64,000 bases of DNA from a virus, in the IMG/VR virus record IMGVR_UViG_3300020159_000429, positions 1 through 64,000 of that record; one strand, given 5' to 3'. Within the stretch, counting starts at the first letter, position 1. The number at the start of each line of letters is the position of its first letter. The translations under genes were made by a program, and so were the position numbers. Shown in pieces: positions 5,611 through 12,902 of the stretch. The notes beneath the pieces were generated by a model, which was not told where the DNA came from, ran no database searches, and saw nothing but the letters and a program-made list of their open reading frames with translations.

Positions 5611-8124
5611 TTAGGTCATCGCCATCAGTTTAGAACGTTCCAATCTAACATCTTCTTTAGCCACAGATATCATTAGGCTAATGTTATTATTTAAACGATT
5701 TACTACATCTCTCACTGATATCTGAGTGCCCGCTCCTATGACATTCTGTAATTGTTTTGGGGTAACAATAGCTTCTTTGCCGTGTAGTGTTGCTCGTGTA
5801 CCTTTGCCAAAATTAGCAAACAATGAACCAAATTTGCCCAATGTTCCAGTGTTCATTCCTAGATACGTGTTTGGATATTCTATTCGAAGTCTTTCTAATT
5901 CACTTTTGTATTCTGGTCGTTGTTTTAATTGTTCAAATATAGGAAAATTCCTAGCCTTTGTTCTTTCAAACAGGTCAGGATCTGATAATACTCGCTTTAA
6001 TGGCTTTTTGCCCTGCCCGATTCCAGGCAGATGCGTCATATCAATTAGATTTAGCAGTGCTTCACGTTCTAATAAAGATAACCCACCAAATTTTTCAGGG
6101 CCTGGATCTAAAGGTGTTAGGCCTATCGAAGCCCTTCTTTCTCTTTCTACTAAAATTGCTTCAATGACATCTGATCTTTTTACATCCTCTGCTGATGAAC
6201 TCGCAGCAAACTCGCTATCTAAAGATTGAAAATATCCCGAAGCGCCTCTTTTTAGACTTTCGATAAAATAATTTTTGCCGCCAGCATTAACTTTTAGAGG
6301 CTCTATTGTCTCATCTTTTGTATCTGCGTCTGACTCGGTAGCACTTTTCATCCCAGGCTGAATTGTCTTTCTAAGATTTTCCGTAATTTTTGTTCCAATT
6401 TTATCTGCTTTCTGTTTATATTTGTCTGGGTCGTCTATCAAACCAATTCGTTGAGCAAATCTTATTGCCAAGTCCGGAGCTAGCTCTTGTAATGATGCTC
6501 TAATAAAGTAGTTAATTTGAAGCTTTAAGTAGTCCATCATCAGATAAAATGTGTCACCCATCATTGTAATCCCTTCCCGAGAAGTTATATTAGAAAAGAA
6601 GTTTTTTATGTATGGTAGTGAATCTCTAGCAATTGTTTGTAATTGTTTACCAAAGTCATTGATCATTTCAGGAATCATTGCTATTTTAAATTCTTTGGCT
6701 AGATCTTTAAACACAGGCAGCAACGTTTTCATAAACGACTGTTGTACTCTCATCACAGCACGTTGGAACTTTCTTAACGTATCGGAAAAAGCATCAGCAT
6801 CTTTTTGTTCTTTTTTAATAGCTTCAATCTGTTTTATAAATTGTCCTCGAAGATCATCAGATAGTTTTCCTTGCCGCACTAGGTATTCCATCACTGGTGT
6901 TAGAGCTTTAGCTGTTTTTTTGGCCTGCTCATTGCCAGCGGCAGCAGCTTTTAGTAACGGATTTAATCGATCAACTGCTCCTTTAGCATTAGCTAATTGA
7001 TCTCCTAACATACCATTAACTGCCTTATCGAATACCTTAGGGTCAATGTCTTTGGTTTTAGCTAGTCGTTGAATTTCACCAATTGCTTTATCAAAGTCTG
7101 GTCCTAATGCTATAGACAAAGCTAGAGCAGTATCATTCATGGTTGTTACATTTAAGTGCCTAGCCTTAAACAATTCTGCTCCGTCTGCTCCAAAAATCAT
7201 AGCAAATCCGTTAAGAGCAGTTTCCATTCTTATTTGTTGTTGGTCGCCTAACTTACCAACACTCAGTTGATATGAAATATCTTGACTAGCAGCAGCAGCA
7301 GCTTTCAACCTATCAACTCGACTTTTACCTGTGAGTTTTGTATACACGTCTAACTGACTAGCATAGGCCAGGAATTGTTTGCTAGTAGTGTTATATTCGT
7401 GTTCTTGAAATGCTTTTCCTCTTCTAGAACTCCAATTAAAATCAAGTAGTAGTTCGTTTTGTTGTTGCGAAGTGTATCCCATTTTGTCAAGAATGTCAGA
7501 GACCGCAGAGTTCTCCATAAACATTGCTTCTGACATTCTTGAAAAATTTCTCATGCCTGAAGTAACAGTGCCGCCTCCAAAAGCCATTATCTTTTCGCTG
7601 TTTTCAGAAATTAAGTTTATGAGCTCATCAGTACCTAATCCCATGCGTAGAGCAGATTCTTTGAATTCAATCATGTCATTACCAAAAGTTGCTCCGTATT
7701 TGGTTGCCTGTTTAAGATCATCGTTCCACGATTCAAGTATTGATATAGAAGTAGTAATGATTGAAGCAAACCCACCAAGAGCATCGCCTACAATTGGAAG
7801 TTTCTTAATTACGTCTTGTTCTAAAAATTTACTGTACGCACTGAGTTTATCTTCACCCCGTGCTAGCATCGAAGTAAAATTTTTGCCGGCAGTAACAGTG
7901 TTAACTAACCCAGCAGCCAAGGATGAAAATGCTTTTGATGCTGACGTTAGAACTTTATTAGTAGCTTTTATAGTATCGTCTGTGTCGCCGATAATATTGT
8001 TATCGCCGCCGGACATATTGTTATATGCCAATACTATCTCGCGAAGAGTTGCTTCAGAAGCAGCATTGTTTATAACACCGGATCCTAGACTACTGCTATA
8101 GTATTCTACTGTATTTTTTGCCAT
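5611..8124 (-). CDS. Tape-measure/baseplate-hub-like protein, paralog B
   Basis: 837 aa helical A/G/L-rich; shares N-terminal (NNxASEATxRE) and C-terminal (GTLGxxGSLFxxFGxGT...EAxxTPxQ) motifs with the adjacent 847-aa ORF. Confidence 0.65.
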   Translation of the reverse strand: MAKNTVEYYSSSLGSGVINNAASEATLREIVLAYNNMSGGDNNIIGDTDDTIKATNKVLTSASKAFSSLAAGLVNTVTAGKNFTSMLARGEDKLSAYSKFLEQDVIKKLPIVGDALGGFASIITTSISILESWNDDLKQATKYGATFGNDMIEFKESALRMGLGTDELINLISENSEKIMAFGGGTVTSGMRNFSRMSEAMFMENSAVSDILDKMGYTSQQQNELLLDFNWSSRRGKAFQEHEYNTTSKQFLAYASQLDVYTKLTGKSRVDRLKAAAAASQDISYQLSVGKLGDQQQIRMETALNGFAMIFGADGAELFKARHLNVTTMNDTALALSIALGPDFDKAIGEIQRLAKTKDIDPKVFDKAVNGMLGDQLANAKGAVDRLNPLLKAAAAGNEQAKKTAKALTPVMEYLVRQGKLSDDLRGQFIKQIEAIKKEQKDADAFSDTLRKFQRAVMRVQQSFMKTLLPVFKDLAKEFKIAMIPEMINDFGKQLQTIARDSLPYIKNFFSNITSREGITMMGDTFYLMMDYLKLQINYFIRASLQELAPDLAIRFAQRIGLIDDPDKYKQKADKIGTKITENLRKTIQPGMKSATESDADTKDETIEPLKVNAGGKNYFIESLKRGASGYFQSLDSEFAASSSAEDVKRSDVIEAILVERERRASIGLTPLDPGPEKFGGLSLLEREALLNLIDMTHLPGIGQGKKPLKRVLSDPDLFERTKARNFPIFEQLKQRPEYKSELERLRIEYPNTYLGMNTGTLGKFGSLFANFGKGTRATLHGKEAIVTPKQLQNVIGAGTQISVRDVVNRLNNNISLMISVAKEDVRLERSKLMAMT

Positions 8125-10667
8125 TATGCTATGTTAACCTGATTTTTTTCTATATACGACAATTGCGATCTAGACAAGCTAGTACGTTCTGCCATGATGT
8201 TTGCTAATCTTTGAAAATTTCTATCTAACGATTCTAACATTTCTGTAGTAGCAATGTTACCAGCACCAGCTATCACTGAATTCATCTGTCCAGGAGTCAT
8301 TACTGCTTCTATATCATCTAGTATTACATCAGTACCTGCTCCAAAGTCTTTAAACAGCGAACCGTATTGACCTAATGTTCCTGTCGAATGTGATTTCATA
8401 TACTTACTAGGATCTACCGGTGTTCCGTTATACGTTGTTTCCCAATGAAGATGAGGTCCAGTAGACTTCCCAGTGTTGCCAGTATAACCAATGTGTGTTC
8501 CTTCTTTGATTATAGTACCTTTAGGAAACGATTCTTGTAATTTAAAAAGTTTGTCGCCTACTGGATCCATGTGAGCTAATAAACTTTCTATACCAGTTTT
8601 CTTATCAGTTATTCTTACGTAATGTCCCCACCCTTTTTCATGTCCATAAAAGATGCTTCCACCATGGGGAGCAAGAATATGTTCACCAATTTCTGCTCTA
8701 TAGTCAAGAGCATCATGCGGTCCATTTAGTCGATTTTCTCCAAACGGACTAGTCATTTTTCTATCTTTCATATTTGCTAAAGGATCACCAAATTTTTGAA
8801 TATTAGCTGCTGCCATTTGTTTAATAGCCGCTTGGGATCTTGAAACTGAATCCGAAGATACTCCTCTAGGTCTGTTTTCGCCGTCGGATGATTTGCCTGG
8901 AAGGGTATAATCTGATGGAAGTCCCTTGTGTCTTGTTTGACTTTGTTTTTTCTCGTAAGCATCAAGTGATTCGCCTAATTCTTTATTCATGTCAGCTGAA
9001 AGCTTTTCTGCATTCTGTAGTCCTAGAATACTTTTCATGTAGTATTTGAATTTGATGCCCATGGTATCGAAAAAATATGCTACTTCATTCCATATAAAAT
9101 CTCTACCGTTTTCGTCTCCTAGATATTTGAAAAAAGTAATAACATCAGGCAGATATTTTTCTACTGAATCTTTTAAGAAAATACCAAATTGTCTAACTTT
9201 ACCTGGCAGGTCTTTACTTTCTAACTCAATTGCTAGATCGTTTAATAGTGGAAGAAATGCCTCCATCAACTGAAATTTTAAATTCTGCATGGCCATTTCA
9301 AAGTCATTTAGAAATTGTGTTAACGCTTCTCTTTCTTTGGTTTCCACTCTAGCCTTAGCAAACATTTCTCGCAGCTTAGGTTCAGTTATTTTTGTAATGT
9401 CACCATGTTTGTTCAGCTGTTCTAATATTGGTTGAATCGCACGTCTAAACTTATCAGCATCACCGTATCCAACGGCAGCAGCAGCCAGCATATTCTCTAT
9501 GCCGTTGGCAGTTTTAGCCGAAGCAAGCATAGATTTAATCAGTTTATCTTCAGTTTGGGCAGTATATTGTTCAATGCTAGCTGTACCATTTTTAGCAGAA
9601 GATATAGATTCCCTCATATTCTTAGTCAGCTGTGGCATTAACACCATTAAATTTTGAGCATCTTCGTTGCCTGGTGGCATGCCTAGGAACAAAGCCTTGA
9701 ATAGTTCAGCACCCGATTCACCGTACATGGTAACATAGCTGGCCAATGCAGTTTGAATCTTTTCTCGTTGGGCGCCTCCCAACTTGGCCAGTTCCATTTT
9801 AAAAACAATGTCTTGATTTGCCACAGCCATTTGACCTTCAAGTTGCTTAACTGTCTTTCCGGTCAAATATCCCATTTGAGTTAGATGTAGTTGAAATCTT
9901 TCAAATGATATTAACAGATCTGCGTCCGACCGTCTTTCATCACGCATACCCATACCAGCAATATCAATGTATCTTATAAATGCTTCGTTGACATCTTTGG
10001 CACTGTAACCTATCTGTCGTAGACTTCTAGTTGCAAGACCACCTTCGCGATTTAATAGTTTTGATAGTCTACTAAATCTTTCAGCACCTTCTGTTACAGT
10101 CTTGCCAAGATTCAACATCACAGGCGAATGGGCAGATATCATACGCATAAAGTCATCTAGATCCATTGCTGATGATGTAGCAGCTTTTGATGCTCTTAGA
10201 ATACTGTTACCAAAAGTAGCACCGGTTGCTGTTCCTAATTTTAGACTTTCGTTCCATTCTTCTAAAACTTCAATACCATCGTTTAGTAGTCCACCAACGC
10301 CACCTAGTAGTCCACCAAAAATTGGAAGTTTAGATATTACTTGATCGTTAAGAGTTCGTGTGTAGGCACTTAGTTTAGTGTTACCAGTAAGTAACATAGC
10401 ACCCATGCTACCTACCGCACCAATAGCGTTGCCAATTTGATTGCCTAGCCCGTCGGCTAATTTAGCCATAGTATTTGAACTTTTACGCATTTTAGCAGCA
10501 GGCGATGCTCCGCCACCTGCGCCGCCACCTGCGCCGCCACCACTACCTCCGCCACTGTTCTGTTTTATTGCCGCCAACAGTTCACGCATAGTAGCTTCGC
10601 TAGCTATGTTGTTAAGTACTGTGCCGTCCAATTGACCGCCAAGAAATTCTACTGTTGTTTTTGCCAT
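8124..10667 (-). CDS. Tape-measure/baseplate-hub-like protein with M23 metallopeptidase domain, paralog A
   Basis: 847 aa; M23 motifs HDALD (HxxxD) and GNTGKSTGPHLH (HxH) encoded at about 8401-8756. Confidence 0.75.
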   Translation of the reverse strand: MAKTTVEFLGGQLDGTVLNNIASEATMRELLAAIKQNSGGGSGGGAGGGAGGGASPAAKMRKSSNTMAKLADGLGNQIGNAIGAVGSMGAMLLTGNTKLSAYTRTLNDQVISKLPIFGGLLGGVGGLLNDGIEVLEEWNESLKLGTATGATFGNSILRASKAATSSAMDLDDFMRMISAHSPVMLNLGKTVTEGAERFSRLSKLLNREGGLATRSLRQIGYSAKDVNEAFIRYIDIAGMGMRDERRSDADLLISFERFQLHLTQMGYLTGKTVKQLEGQMAVANQDIVFKMELAKLGGAQREKIQTALASYVTMYGESGAELFKALFLGMPPGNEDAQNLMVLMPQLTKNMRESISSAKNGTASIEQYTAQTEDKLIKSMLASAKTANGIENMLAAAAVGYGDADKFRRAIQPILEQLNKHGDITKITEPKLREMFAKARVETKEREALTQFLNDFEMAMQNLKFQLMEAFLPLLNDLAIELESKDLPGKVRQFGIFLKDSVEKYLPDVITFFKYLGDENGRDFIWNEVAYFFDTMGIKFKYYMKSILGLQNAEKLSADMNKELGESLDAYEKKQSQTRHKGLPSDYTLPGKSSDGENRPRGVSSDSVSRSQAAIKQMAAANIQKFGDPLANMKDRKMTSPFGENRLNGPHDALDYRAEIGEHILAPHGGSIFYGHEKGWGHYVRITDKKTGIESLLAHMDPVGDKLFKLQESFPKGTIIKEGTHIGYTGNTGKSTGPHLHWETTYNGTPVDPSKYMKSHSTGTLGQYGSLFKDFGAGTDVILDDIEAVMTPGQMNSVIAGAGNIATTEMLESLDRNFQRLANIMAERTSLSRSQLSYIEKNQVNIA
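10510..10541 (-). repeat. 12-bp tandem repeat encoding a GGGA linker
   Basis: (ccgccacctgcg) x2.7, encoding GGGAGGGAGGG. Confidence 0.8.
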
Positions 10668-10709: not shown

Positions 10710-10737
10710 TATAAATATCATGCTACATATATTTATA
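10710..10737. promoter_or_regulatory. Paired oppositely oriented T4-type late promoters
   Basis: TATAAATA on + at 10710-10717 and on - at 10730-10737, between divergent genes. Confidence 0.8.
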
Positions 10738-10747
10738 GGTGGAAAAC

Positions 10748-11650
10748 ATGGCAGATTTTGATTCAAACAAATTTCAAGGGCAGGCTCCTGCTCCTCAACA
10801 ACCAGCTACAGCGAACCCGCTAGCTAGCTTTTTTAGGCAACCAAAAATTTATGTTTCGCTGCCTTCCAAAGGCGAATTTTATGCAGAAGGATCATTAGTA
10901 AAAACTCCCAACAACGAGTATCCTGTATTTGCTATGACAGCTAGGGATGAACTGTTGTTTAAAACTCCTGATGCGTTAATGAACGGAATTGCTACTAAAG
11001 AAGTTATTACCAGTTGTATTCCTAACATTTTGGACCCGTGGAAAATTCCTAGCTTAGATGTCGATGCTGTATTGTCAGCAATACGTATTGCTACCTACGG
11101 TGAAGAGATGGAAGTAACTGTACGTTGTCCAAAATGTGAAAATGTCAACGACGCTGTTGTTGACCTACGCACTGTTTTAGATAGGCTTAACAAAATACAA
11201 TTCGATACCAAAGTCGAAATTGGTAATGAAATGGTTGTGCATCTACGCCCGATGACCTACGAAGAAATTACCAAGACAGCACTCAAAGCATTTGAACATC
11301 AACGTATCTTTACAGTGATCAACGATGACTCCATTGACGAACACGAAAAATTAAAAATGTTCCAAGAAAGTTTTATCAAACTAACTGACCTTACTATTGA
11401 CACAGCGGTAAGATGTATTACCAAGGTTGAAAGTGCTGCTGGTACTACAGAAAATCCAGAGTTTATCAAAGAGTTTTTACAAAAAACTGACAAGAGCGTG
11501 TTTGATCAAATTAATATTGCTGTCAGTAAGACTAGAGAAACTGGCAACCTCAGCAGTTTCCACAGCAAATGTCAAAAATGCGAACACGAATGGGAAGTGG
11601 AGTTAACCATGGACCAATCGGATTTTTTCGACAAAGGCTTTCGACGTTAA
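10748..11650 (+). CDS. Baseplate hub/tail assembly chaperone (gp26-like)
   Basis: LPSKG, MTARDELL, LSAIRIATYGE, two CxxC motifs, DFF near the C-terminus. ATG 10748 with AGGTGG SD preferred over GTG 10739. Confidence 0.8.
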   Translation: MADFDSNKFQGQAPAPQQPATANPLASFFRQPKIYVSLPSKGEFYAEGSLVKTPNNEYPVFAMTARDELLFKTPDALMNGIATKEVITSCIPNILDPWKIPSLDVDAVLSAIRIATYGEEMEVTVRCPKCENVNDAVVDLRTVLDRLNKIQFDTKVEIGNEMVVHLRPMTYEEITKTALKAFEHQRIFTVINDDSIDEHEKLKMFQESFIKLTDLTIDTAVRCITKVESAAGTTENPEFIKEFLQKTDKSVFDQINIAVSKTRETGNLSSFHSKCQKCEHEWEVELTMDQSDFFDKGFRR

Positions 11651-11682
11651 GTATCCCTGAGATATTAGCCGAGTCGAAAGCC
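11623..11682 (+). promoter_or_regulatory. -1 programmed ribosomal frameshift signal
   Basis: In-frame T TTT TTC (11623-11629), 6-nt spacer, perfect 10-bp stem GGCTTTCGAC (11636-11645)/GTCGAAAGCC (11673-11682). Confidence 0.75.
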
Positions 11683-11859
11683 CTTGACGATCAAGCAAGG
11701 CAAATTAAATTAGAAGCCATGCGGTCAGTTTGGTACATGCGTGGAGGATTGTCTTTTGCTGAAGCTATGAATCTCAGTTGGGACGAAAGAGAACTTGTCC
11801 TTGAGATAGTCAAGGACAATATGGATGTTACTAAAAGTTCTGGATTACCGTTCTTTTAA
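11629..11859 (+). CDS. -1 frame extension of the chaperone (gp51-/lambda gpT-like segment)
   Basis: Open -1 frame RQRLSTLS...WYMRGGLSFAEAMNLSWDERELV...; no convincing independent SD plus start. Confidence 0.65.
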   Translation, partial: RQRLSTLSIPEILAESKALDDQARQIKLEAMRSVWYMRGGLSFAEAMNLSWDERELVLEIVKDNMDVTKSSGLPFF

Positions 11860-12902
11860 CGAGCACTCATAGCTTTGAGGATCTGTAGTACCTGAGTTTT
11901 TTGTGTAGGATCCATCTTTAAAATTTCACCAAACGCACTAGACATCACACCCATATACTCACGAGTTAATGGGGTTCCAGACATGTATCCTGTAATAGCT
12001 TTCTTTAATTGATTAGGATCTATCCCAGGCAACATGGCAGTTAGCTTGCCGTAATTGAGATTGCCTTTGGTCTGTGTCTTGGCATCATCACCGCCTTTAA
12101 TACCTCGTTTTAACCCAGCCATAAATCCCTGTCCTGAATCATCACCGGCTGCGTCGTCAGCAGCAGCGTTGCCGCCTGATTGGCTAATGTCTTGGGCTGA
12201 AGCACCTTGACCGCCGATGACCGCATCAAGTTGTTGTCCCATTTTGGCTTTAAGAATATCAGTAACTGCTGCTTTGATAATACTGTCTACTGTTGAATTC
12301 TTAAGTTCCACTTCGTCAATGATTGTTTCACTAACTGGGTTATATCGTAATCCTGCTAATTGAGCAATGCGTGATAATTCACCAATGCTCTCAGCCGATT
12401 TGTTCTTTTTTCCTTTAGGAGGAACTTCATCAGCGGGCGTCTCAGGAGCACCTGGAGCTGCTGTATCAGCGGGCGTCTCAGGAGCACCTGGCTCAGCGGG
12501 TGTCTCAGGAGCAGCATCACTGCTTGGATCTGCTGGAACTTCTATCGTACCAGTAGGTTCAATTCTATCTGTCCCAAGTTCTTTGGCAATATCACCAGTT
12601 GCTGCACTACCCGATGCCATAGCTGCTTGTTTTAACGCAGCTTCGGCTCCTGCTGTAGGAAAACCGTTGGATTTTAAAAAGGCAATTAACGCCTCCGAAT
12701 TAGGTTTTTGGTCCGTTTGACCTAGATAAAAGTCAAATTGTTTTCTAAGGCCATTAGCATACTTGGCCATGTCAAGAGCACCTTTAGCAGAACTACTTCC
12801 AAACTTAGAAGCAATACCTAGACCAGCCCTTTTTAACATACCTACAGGTGCTTCAGATATTTGTTGTTGTTGTTTTTGAGATAATATATCAGTAATTTTC
12901 AT
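11856..12902 (-). CDS. Putative internal head/virion protein with Pro-Ala-Glu repeats
   Basis: 348 aa; own TATAAATA promoter; RIAQLAGL motif resembles the scaffold C-terminus. Confidence 0.55.
   Translation of the reverse strand: MKITDILSQKQQQQISEAPVGMLKRAGLGIASKFGSSSAKGALDMAKYANGLRKQFDFYLGQTDQKPNSEALIAFLKSNGFPTAGAEAALKQAAMASGSAATGDIAKELGTDRIEPTGTIEVPADPSSDAAPETPAEPGAPETPADTAAPGAPETPADEVPPKGKKNKSAESIGELSRIAQLAGLRYNPVSETIIDEVELKNSTVDSIIKAAVTDILKAKMGQQLDAVIGGQGASAQDISQSGGNAAADDAAGDDSGQGFMAGLKRGIKGGDDAKTQTKGNLNYGKLTAMLPGIDPNQLKKAITGYMSGTPLTREYMGVMSSAFGEILKMDPTQKTQVLQILKAMSAR
12429..12513 (-). repeat. Three-copy direct repeat encoding (PG)APETPA
   Basis: atcagcgggcgtctcaggagcacctgg at 12429-12455 and 12465-12491; partial copy at 12493-12513. 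Confidence 0.85.

Follow-up and report, generated by a model that had tools for sequence, protein, structure and literature searches.

The first 64,000 nucleotides (nt) of the IMG/VR virus record IMGVR_UViG_3300020159_000429 (hereafter, the window) carry a gene of the T4 gp26/gp51 baseplate-hub family in which a −1 programmed ribosomal frameshift very probably operates, so that a gp26-like form of 300 amino acids (aa) and a gp51-like form of 370 aa would be produced from one gene. The argument is a comparative one, combining a slippery heptamer followed by a stem-loop, the presence of an in-phase canonical heptamer (TTTTTTC, TTTTTTT, AAATTTT, or AAATTTA) in every complete frameshift-type locus that we examined (around 190 distinct loci), a conserved −1-frame peptide with no conserved start, and an alternation between genomes with one such gene and a heptamer and genomes with two genes and no heptamer. 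These features are observed, whereas slippage on the ribosome, its frequency, and its function are what we infer. The virus is an uncultured, giant T4-related lake phage; its record, a fragment of 82.6 kb, is around 23% complete, and near-identical DNA is present in lake and freshwater metagenomes from several studies. In the full-text literature, with subscription journals outside our coverage, we found no report of frameshifting in gp26, gp51, or baseplate-hub genes.

A predicted −1 frameshift signal and its conservation

The 300-aa zero-frame product matches the PF12322 (T4_baseplate) profile with an E-value of 4.2e-15 (56.5 bits, with a gathering cut-off of 24.5) and phrog_150 ("baseplate hub") with an E-value of 4.8e-22. 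The PF12322 alignment places residues 71–294 of the protein on positions 35–218 of a profile of 219, and the end of the profile coincides with the two Phe codons of GAT TTT TTC (11621–11629), which belong to the slip site. The protein contains two CxxC pairs, and its AlphaFold2 model has a predicted local distance difference test (pLDDT) score of 78, with residues 289–300 disordered. It is 25–35% identical to its counterparts in the giant T4-related phages Atu_ph07, Phosso, CBB, GAP32, 121Q/PBECO4, RaK2, PA5oct, XacN1, and SCTP-2. Given that a six-frame search of the phage's own 82.6-kb record returned a single PF12322 copy (55.8 bits), 10748–11650 appears to be the only gp26/gp51-family baseplate-hub assembly gene of this phage.

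Six codons lie between the heptamer T_TTT_TTC and the zero-frame stop, which is seven codons on if TTC is counted. After the spacer GACAAA, GGCTTTCGAC (11636–11645) pairs perfectly with GTCGAAAGCC (11673–11682), and inner helices prolong the stem (11646–11650 with 11665–11669, and 11652–11655 with 11661–11664), so that the zero-frame stop TAA (11648–11650) sits within the 5′ arm. The stem has a minimum free energy of −25.6 kcal/mol (z −4.3), a stability reached by 0 of 200 dinucleotide shuffles; the fold after the heptamer is also more stable than 98% of the local 70-nt windows. No Rfam family was matched at 11500–11900. The −1 frame is open for 76 codons, and the predicted fusion joins these to zero-frame residues 1–294, giving 370 aa. 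AlphaFold2 models the 76-aa extension as a helical domain with a pLDDT of 88 and helices at residues 2–8, 11–39, 45–49, and 53–73. A preliminary description of this region had reported the heptamer, the 10-bp stem six nt downstream with an inner helix, the length of the −1 frame, and the products of 300 and 370 aa, and all of these, coordinates included, are correct as read directly from the DNA.

Heptamers of the type U_UU.U_UU.Y are among the most efficient in Escherichia coli, and U_UU.U_UU.C, which occurs in insertion sequence (IS) elements, belongs to the efficient class (Sharma et al. 2014, PMC4066793). The window resembles the signals of IS3/IS1-family elements and of dnaX in that a stem follows an X_XXY_YYZ heptamer after a short spacer, although the genes are unrelated, coding for a transposase or a polymerase subunit in those cases and for what would be a pair of structural-assembly proteins here.

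The events at this site can be pictured as follows. Most ribosomes would read through and stop at 11648–11650, yielding the 300-aa form, the presumed counterpart of T4 gp26. Some ribosomes, with tRNA-Phe paired to the P-site UUU and the A-site UUC, would be paused by the stem-loop 6 nt downstream and slip back by one nucleotide to UUU UUU; decoding would then resume at CGA and run through 76 codons, as far as 11856. The slip product would be the 370-aa form, whose added helical tail would correspond to the C-terminal tail of T4 gp51. Together and in a fixed ratio, the two forms may serve as non-virion chaperones of hub and tape-measure assembly, like lambda gpG and gpGT, with the common body acting on the tape measure or hub and the rarer, extended form bridging to another partner.

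The preliminary description had left the conservation of the heptamer and of the −1 phase to an alignment of homologs, and both are kept. For the jumbo-type phages, we fetched 16 phage loci and 44 viral-contig loci, and the heptamer is in phase in 61/61 jumbo-type loci, with protein identities of 25–97%; after it, the zero frame continues for 1–21 codons and the −1 frame stays open for 72–82. Among cyanophage- and Aeh1-type loci, 85/87 have it, and the remaining 2 are cut by contig ends. In a third set, all 64 unique loci are in phase (64/64), with TTTTTTC in 47, AAATTTT in 16, and AAATTTA in 1; thus, the sequence of the site can change and yet stays a canonical slippery heptamer. AAATTTT encodes Asn-Phe at the slip position in some lineages. 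The codon preceding the heptamer may specify D, H, N, S (both AGT and TCT), R, A, G, or Y, and it always ends in T.

The spelling of the site points in the same direction. Over 128 unique loci, it reads T TTT TTC in 123 and T TTT TTT in 5, whereas 260 other Phe-Phe pairs, taken as a control from long open reading frames (ORFs) of the same loci, are spelled TTT TTC in just 18 cases (6.9%), TTC TTT in 118, and TTT TTT in 102, with a preceding T in 23%. Because the spelling of the slip site differs from this control, selection acts here on the nucleotides and not only on the Phe-Phe motif. Phe codon usage in these loci is 2906 TTT versus 1103 TTC. Outside the slip site, TTT TTC is the rarest Phe-Phe spelling, and its scarcity looks like a general avoidance of accidental slippery sequence.

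In 32 diverse phages, conservation of the −1 peptide sets in with the codon directly behind the heptamer, with the pattern FFR.RL...PEEI ... WYMRGG ... ER, and the motif FFR.(R)L..PE(E)I lies before any candidate start. The short forms of these phages share just ~25–35% identity, and their zero-frame tails vary in length and sequence. In particular, the Arg after Phe-Phe, which is encoded by the last C of the heptamer and the next two bases, is kept, whereas the overlapping zero-frame residue varies (D, E, A, V, or G). This conserved Arg is the clearest sign of reading in the −1 frame from the slip site on.

A conserved independent start of the downstream frame was also sought in the homologs, and none was found. 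Candidate −1 starts fall at codons that differ between phages, from −18 to +38 relative to the heptamer, none with a Shine-Dalgarno sequence, and in RaK2, PA5oct, and several close relatives of the window there is none before codon +32 or +38. In the window itself, three −1-frame ATGs lie upstream of the heptamer (11569, 11578, and 11590), again without a Shine-Dalgarno sequence; they are not conserved starts, because in the nearest relatives a stop closes the −1 frame 5–13 codons before the heptamer. The earlier statement that this frame lacks a clear start of its own thus stands as regards ribosome-binding signals and conservation, and it has to be amended for these three upstream ATGs.

Database annotation of the extension is inconsistent. 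A profile of the window-type extension found 450 matches among 1.84 billion proteins, and in this exhaustive search gene callers begin the extension fragment at many different first residues. GenBank records annotate a separate ORF of 52–76 aa in CBB, GAP32, 121Q, BF, XacN1, SCTP-2, Phosso, Munch, and S-SSM7 (whose record calls it "gp51"), with an internal ATG as its start in some cases, and a joined coding sequence or ribosomal slippage is marked in none of the annotated records that we fetched. The stretch that follows the gp26-like gene and holds the conserved −1 extension is left unannotated in RaK2 (L007 1939–2132), PA5oct (L008 2044–2252), and Aeh1 (L064 3212–3377), and the Aeh1 extension matches phrog_634 at an E-value of 7e-17. 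One protein of 2476 aa (P0177) shows 8 separate matches to the extension profile (E-value 5e-15), which could reflect either a repeat protein or low complexity.

The structure downstream of the heptamer differs between clades. Stem covariation, also proposed as a check in the preliminary description, was examined in the window's clade (7 distinct sequences, 64–97% protein identity), where the stem is conserved: 8/10 outer pairs are invariant and one pair has changed from A-U to U-A, a compensatory change. In this clade, 88.7% of cells are paired, as compared with 30–46% after sliding of the 3′ partner. In other clades the stems are different; they start 5–8 nt after the heptamer, with 3′ arms at varying distances, and in 20/42 unique loci the 70 nt after the heptamer are in the top 5% of most stable local windows. 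The stem is a frequent helper and not a universal part of the signal. At the contig level, small parts of the locus are present in three RNA-library runs. For instance, a freshwater metatranscriptome (run X18) contains a 227-nt contig from a 95%-identical strain that spans 11547–11773, across the slip site and stem, with 11 differences, none of them in the heptamer or in either stem arm, and with no indel, although contigs hide rare variants.

Correspondence to T4 gp26 and gp51

T4 gp26 and gp51 are listed as hub assembly chaperones, and gp51 is needed for hub assembly and absent from the particle (Leiman et al. 2010, PMC3004832). Both proteins (208 and 249 aa) fill the whole PF12322 profile, with E-values of 9e-64 and 4e-52, and gp51 adds 48 residues; by these profile matches, they are paralogs. 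The two forms predicted in the window resemble the T4 pair in belonging to the same Pfam family, with a short form that ends at a Phe-Phe motif and a long form that continues into an additional helical tail at the C-terminus. In T4, however, they are separate, divergently transcribed paralogs without a slippery site, whereas the window would rely on one gene and a −1 shift; moreover, the T4 gp51 tail has 48 aa and the window tail 76 aa, with weak sequence similarity.

The correspondence is closest in cyanophage- and Aeh1-type genes. Their extension matches the gp51 tail in profile-profile comparison (Prob 96.8, E-value 3e-10), the Aeh1 extension aligns with gp51 residues 197–251, that is, from around 200 to the end, in BLASTP (E-values of 3.5e-6 to 4e-5), and phrog_634 ("baseplate hub assembly catalyst") unites gp51 residues 147–246, the small S-SSM7 ORF named "gp51", and the unannotated Aeh1 extension. 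By these comparisons, the long form is clearly the gp51 counterpart in such genes. Cyanophage S-SSM7 (SSSM7_010/011, T4-like gene clusters 11 and 12) parallels the window in detail, with GAT TTT TTC GCC TAA, a −1 extension, a short spacer followed by a 9-bp stem, just one PF12322 gene genome-wide, and a small ORF that falls in phrog_634 with the gp51 tail. It differs in that its record has two independent genes, "gp26" and a small "gp51 baseplate hub assembly catalyst" that begins at an internal ATG, with no slippage annotated. The cyanophage extensions are also shorter (60–71 codons) and closer to gp51 in sequence than that of the window.

For the window's own clade, the similarity in sequence is weaker. 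An alignment of the fusion proteins matches the gp51 family through the junction to the end (Prob 95.5, E-value 1.3e-8), and the score is 66 for the fusion versus 54 for the short form alone. With hhalign, an alignment of the extension against the single T4 gp51 sequence returned nothing (Prob 1.8), and this comparison is informative only with the gp51 family alignment. The position, length class, and helical nature of the window extension agree with the gp51 tail, on which the newer Pfam family PF28602 is precomputed. We therefore consider it likely that the window's long form is the gp51 counterpart. The preliminary description had read the two frames as a gp26/gp51 pair, and this is supported with one correction: the −1 frame would correspond to the C-terminal tail of gp51 and not to the whole of it, so that the 370-aa fusion would be equivalent to gp51 and the 300-aa form to gp26.

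The distribution of the two arrangements provides what is, in our view, the strongest comparative argument, as it would mean that the phages require both forms and obtain the second one through the heptamer. Each of eight complete heptamer-bearing genomes (Atu_ph07, 121Q, RaK2, PA5oct, CBB, XacN1, S-SSM7, and Aeh1) has one PF12322 gene, and a single copy was found within 10 kb on either side in 64/64 frameshift-type loci. In contrast, two PF12322 genes, one short and one long, occur without a heptamer in five T4-type phages, T4 among them, and in four distinct jumbo-type loci. In the five T4-type genomes examined (T4, JS98, AM101, KFS-EC, and avDM3), the 3′ end of gp26 lacks a heptamer, and the Phe-Phe motif at this end decays from EFF in T4 and JS98 (both TTC TTT) to EFV, SFL, and KLL; T4 gp26 ends in ...EFFELL.

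Long forms encoded in frame also exist in uncultured jumbo-type phages. A word-indexed search for longer proteins bearing the extension gave none, but the exhaustive profile search then gave ~22 among its best 150 matches, with 319–351 aa and the extension at the very end, behind the PF12322 domain. Their junction, ..F|RxRL.., is the exact predicted shift point. In the four distinct viral-contig loci with an in-frame long form, a second, short PF12322 paralog stands in tandem (27–42% identity), with no frameshift-type signal.

An unrooted maximum-likelihood tree of 37 PF12322 domains places T4-type gp26 and gp51 together on one side of a branch (support 100/97), with the Aeh1-type frameshift genes adjoining them (99/94) and the cyanophage and jumbo genes in clades of their own. 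If the tree is rooted among the single-gene lineages, which is what taxonomy suggests, the duplication would have occurred inside Straboviridae after the Aeh1-like split, and the frameshift gene would be ancestral; the jumbo-type tandem pairs would then be a second, independent, T4-like split. On balance, we lean towards a scenario in which a single frameshift PF12322 gene is the ancestral and prevailing source of the hub/tape-measure chaperone pair across the whole T4-related assemblage (jumbo Rak2/Atu_ph07-like phages, cyanophages, and Aeh1-like phages), T4 genes 26 and 51 are a derived split, some jumbo-type phages underwent a comparable split independently, and gp26 and gp51 are the "G" and "GT" of T4.

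Neighbouring genes and the comparison with lambda G/GT

The positions of the features discussed here are collected in Table 1. The gene is preceded by a Shine-Dalgarno-like sequence, 5 nt before the ATG, and by TATAAATA, a candidate late promoter that matches the T4-type consensus. On the minus strand, the same octamer occurs as TATTTATA at 10730–10737, 63 nt before the start of the 847-aa gene. The two back-to-back matches (10710–10737) suggest overlapping divergent late promoters, a putative arrangement like that of the 25/26 versus 51-29 baseplate cluster of T4. Sigma-70 promoter and terminator scans were at or below chance. At the other end, the stop of the −1 extension (TAA 11857–11859) overlaps the stop of a convergent 348-aa ORF within TTTTAA.

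Table 1. Coordinates of the gp26-like gene, its predicted recoding signal, and associated features (window positions unless a locus is named).
Feature	Position	Strand	Remark
gp26-like zero-frame ORF	10748..11650	+	ATG 10748, TAA 11648-11650; short product 300 aa
Slippery heptamer T_TTT_TTC (U_UUU_UUC)	11623..11629	+	X_XXY_YYZ phase; GAT TTT TTC = 11621-11629
Spacer GACAAA, 6 nt	11630..11635	+	sequence read
Stem-loop, putative stimulator	11636..11682	+	outer 10-bp helix 11636-11645/11673-11682
−1 frame extension, RQRLSTL...GLPFF	11629..11859	+	76 codons to 11856, stop TAA 11857-11859
Shine-Dalgarno-like AGGTGG	10737..10742	+	sequence read; 5 nt before ATG 10748
TATAAATA, match to T4-type late promoter consensus (putative)	10710..10717	+	sequence read; 31 nt upstream of ATG
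Divergent neighbour, 847 aa, M23 peptidase domain	8124..10667	-	PF01551, E 2e-17
Convergent 348-aa ORF	11856-12902	-	no Pfam match
Tandem PF12322 pairs in uncultured jumbo-type phages	L156 9946-11887; L158 2357-4329; L159 8869-10903; L161 8927-10933

The N-terminus of the divergent 847-aa protein resembles gp597 of 121Q (E-value 2.8e-5), a virion structural protein in the same divergent position. A large divergent neighbour stands beside the gene in CBB, GAP32, 121Q, BF, RaK2, PA5oct, Yen9-04, Munch, SCTP-2, and Phosso, and in several of these it is annotated as a virion structural protein. For example, the CBB counterpart of this neighbour, CBB_251, was detected in virions with 29 peptides, and the gp26-like CBB_250 is absent among the listed rows of the virion mass-spectrometry table (PMC5259590). 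In S-SSM7 and Aeh1, a protein of 565–615 aa directly follows on the same strand. The 847-aa ORF and the 837-aa ORF next to it (together 5611–10667, minus strand) are paralogs, with 30% identity over ~550 residues and a shared C-terminal block, and the M23 domain is present only in the 847-aa protein. The preliminary description had placed the gene head-to-head with tape-measure-like genes; it is indeed divergent from the 847-aa ORF, for which tape measure is a candidate identity.

A −1 frameshift in tail-assembly chaperone genes is a hallmark of long-tailed phages (Xu, Hendrix and Duda 2004, as cited in PMC5009743), and this major review gives the G-T frameshift as conserved in them "except T4". 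The window shares with lambda gpG/gpGT and P2 E/E+E' a −1 shift, here predicted, at a canonical heptamer that precedes the stop of the short ORF by a few codons, a common N-terminal body with an extra C-terminal domain on the rarer product, predicted in the window from sequence and comparison, and the location of a tail-assembly gene next to a large virion protein. No sequence similarity to gpG/gpGT was found; in contrast to lambda, the window protein is larger (300 aa) and carries two CxxC pairs, and the gene is divergent from the 847- and 837-aa ORFs instead of lying directly upstream of the tape measure on the same strand. As regards known families of tail-assembly chaperones, the short form matched only PF12322 in Pfam and phrog_150 in PHROGs, and the extension matched no family in either. 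VIA-align of the AlphaFold2 models returned generic helical-hairpin matches, all with Z below 8. In RefSeq, Acinetobacter phage AM101 (NC_049511; L153) has both gp26 and gp51 labelled "tape measure protein assembly chaperone", and this label for gp26/gp51 was found in no searchable paper. Because of the shared logic, the conserved virion-protein neighbour, and the AM101 RefSeq label, we infer that the pair may have a chaperone role like that of lambda G/GT.

Competing explanations and implications

Several observations weigh against the interpretation proposed here or against parts of it. We found no junction peptide, reporter assay, or ribosome profile for any family member. In some relatives, an ATG overlaps the zero-frame stop (as ATGA or TAATG), and coupled re-initiation at these overlaps could add a separate small protein there; similarly, the junction peptide would be no different if it arose by transcriptional slippage on the T run. 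Folding of the Rak2-like enterobacterial phages revealed no notable structure downstream of the heptamer. With respect to gp51, the window-clade extension taken alone matches the gp51 tail and the cyanophage-type extension weakly (P-values of 6e-4 and 2.3e-4, over 31–32 columns), although both matches are in one register, with the motif S..E...(M/L).P.ER..(I/L), and reversed controls gave 0.18–0.36; moreover, phrog_634 matched nothing in the window's record or in 121Q and PA5oct. As for the chaperone role, neither AlphaFold2 model had a PDB match at an E-value of 0.001 or below in Foldseek, tail chaperones included, and BLASTP of the 847-aa neighbour against T4 gp29 showed no similarity.

It could be argued that these are simply two genes, with the downstream frame translated alone, from an internal or non-canonical start or by termination-reinitiation, into a free small protein. 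Most records annotate the locus in this way, as the separate small ORFs of the nine phages listed above attest, and the ATGA or TAATG overlaps of some relatives and the three upstream ATGs of the window could provide the starts. Such starts, however, are scattered, have no Shine-Dalgarno sequence, and are absent in RaK2, PA5oct, L023, and others, and conservation of the peptide begins at the heptamer, upstream of the annotated starts, on which gene callers disagree. Since separate translation would also leave unexplained why the heptamer is kept at synonymous positions and lost exactly where a separate long-form gene exists, we consider it quite improbable.

We assign a similarly low probability to transcriptional slippage, in which RNA polymerase would add one U on the T6/T7 run, so that a minority of mRNAs would carry the extension in frame. 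The under-representation of UUUUUUU in genes has been attributed to possible slippage (PMC4066793). The site is a homopolymer, reaching T7 in five loci, and the resulting ...DFFR... peptide would be identical to that of a ribosomal shift. Nevertheless, 17 loci use AAATTTT or AAATTTA, canonical ribosomal heptamers whose runs are of just 3–4 bases, and such runs are poor substrates for polymerase slippage. The strict X_XXY_YYZ phase, which is irrelevant to the polymerase, is always kept, and stable structure is enriched at a spacing of 5–8 nt, which is typical of ribosomal frameshifting. The RNA-library contig over 11547–11773 has no indel, a weak argument given that contigs drop rare variants. 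There is hardly any room for a third explanation, according to which no recoding occurs, TTTTTTC being a conserved Phe-Phe motif of A+T-rich phages and the open −1 frame a product of chance or a decaying remnant. Phe-Phe may well be an old motif of the family, given the ...EFFELL end of T4 gp26, and TTT is the commoner Phe codon; but its spelling is TTC TTT in T4 and JS98, it has gone from the other two-gene phages, and some lineages have Asn-Phe. Furthermore, the rarest spelling elsewhere prevails at this site, with the preceding wobble T kept across eight amino acids, and the −1 peptide is conserved over 72–82 codons, confidently folded, and an in-frame domain elsewhere.

If −1 frameshifting is accepted, the window and its ~190 relatives indicate that T4-related lineages use the tail-chaperone frameshift trick in an unrelated protein family, and that T4 itself may have replaced the frameshift with two paralogous genes. 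The family would also offer a natural experiment in the gain or loss of recoding signals, as every genome examined has either one gene and a slippery site or two genes without it. Many phage records would need correction, either because they contain a spurious small ORF (often "gp51" in cyanophages) or because they leave a gap unannotated, as in RaK2, PA5oct, and Aeh1. T4 gp51 has long been regarded as essential and catalytic, with its function unknown. Thus, if this reading is true, one textbook exception to the tail-chaperone frameshift, T4, would be removed, "catalytic" gp51 would gain a concrete role, and a testable role would be offered for both gp51 and gp26.

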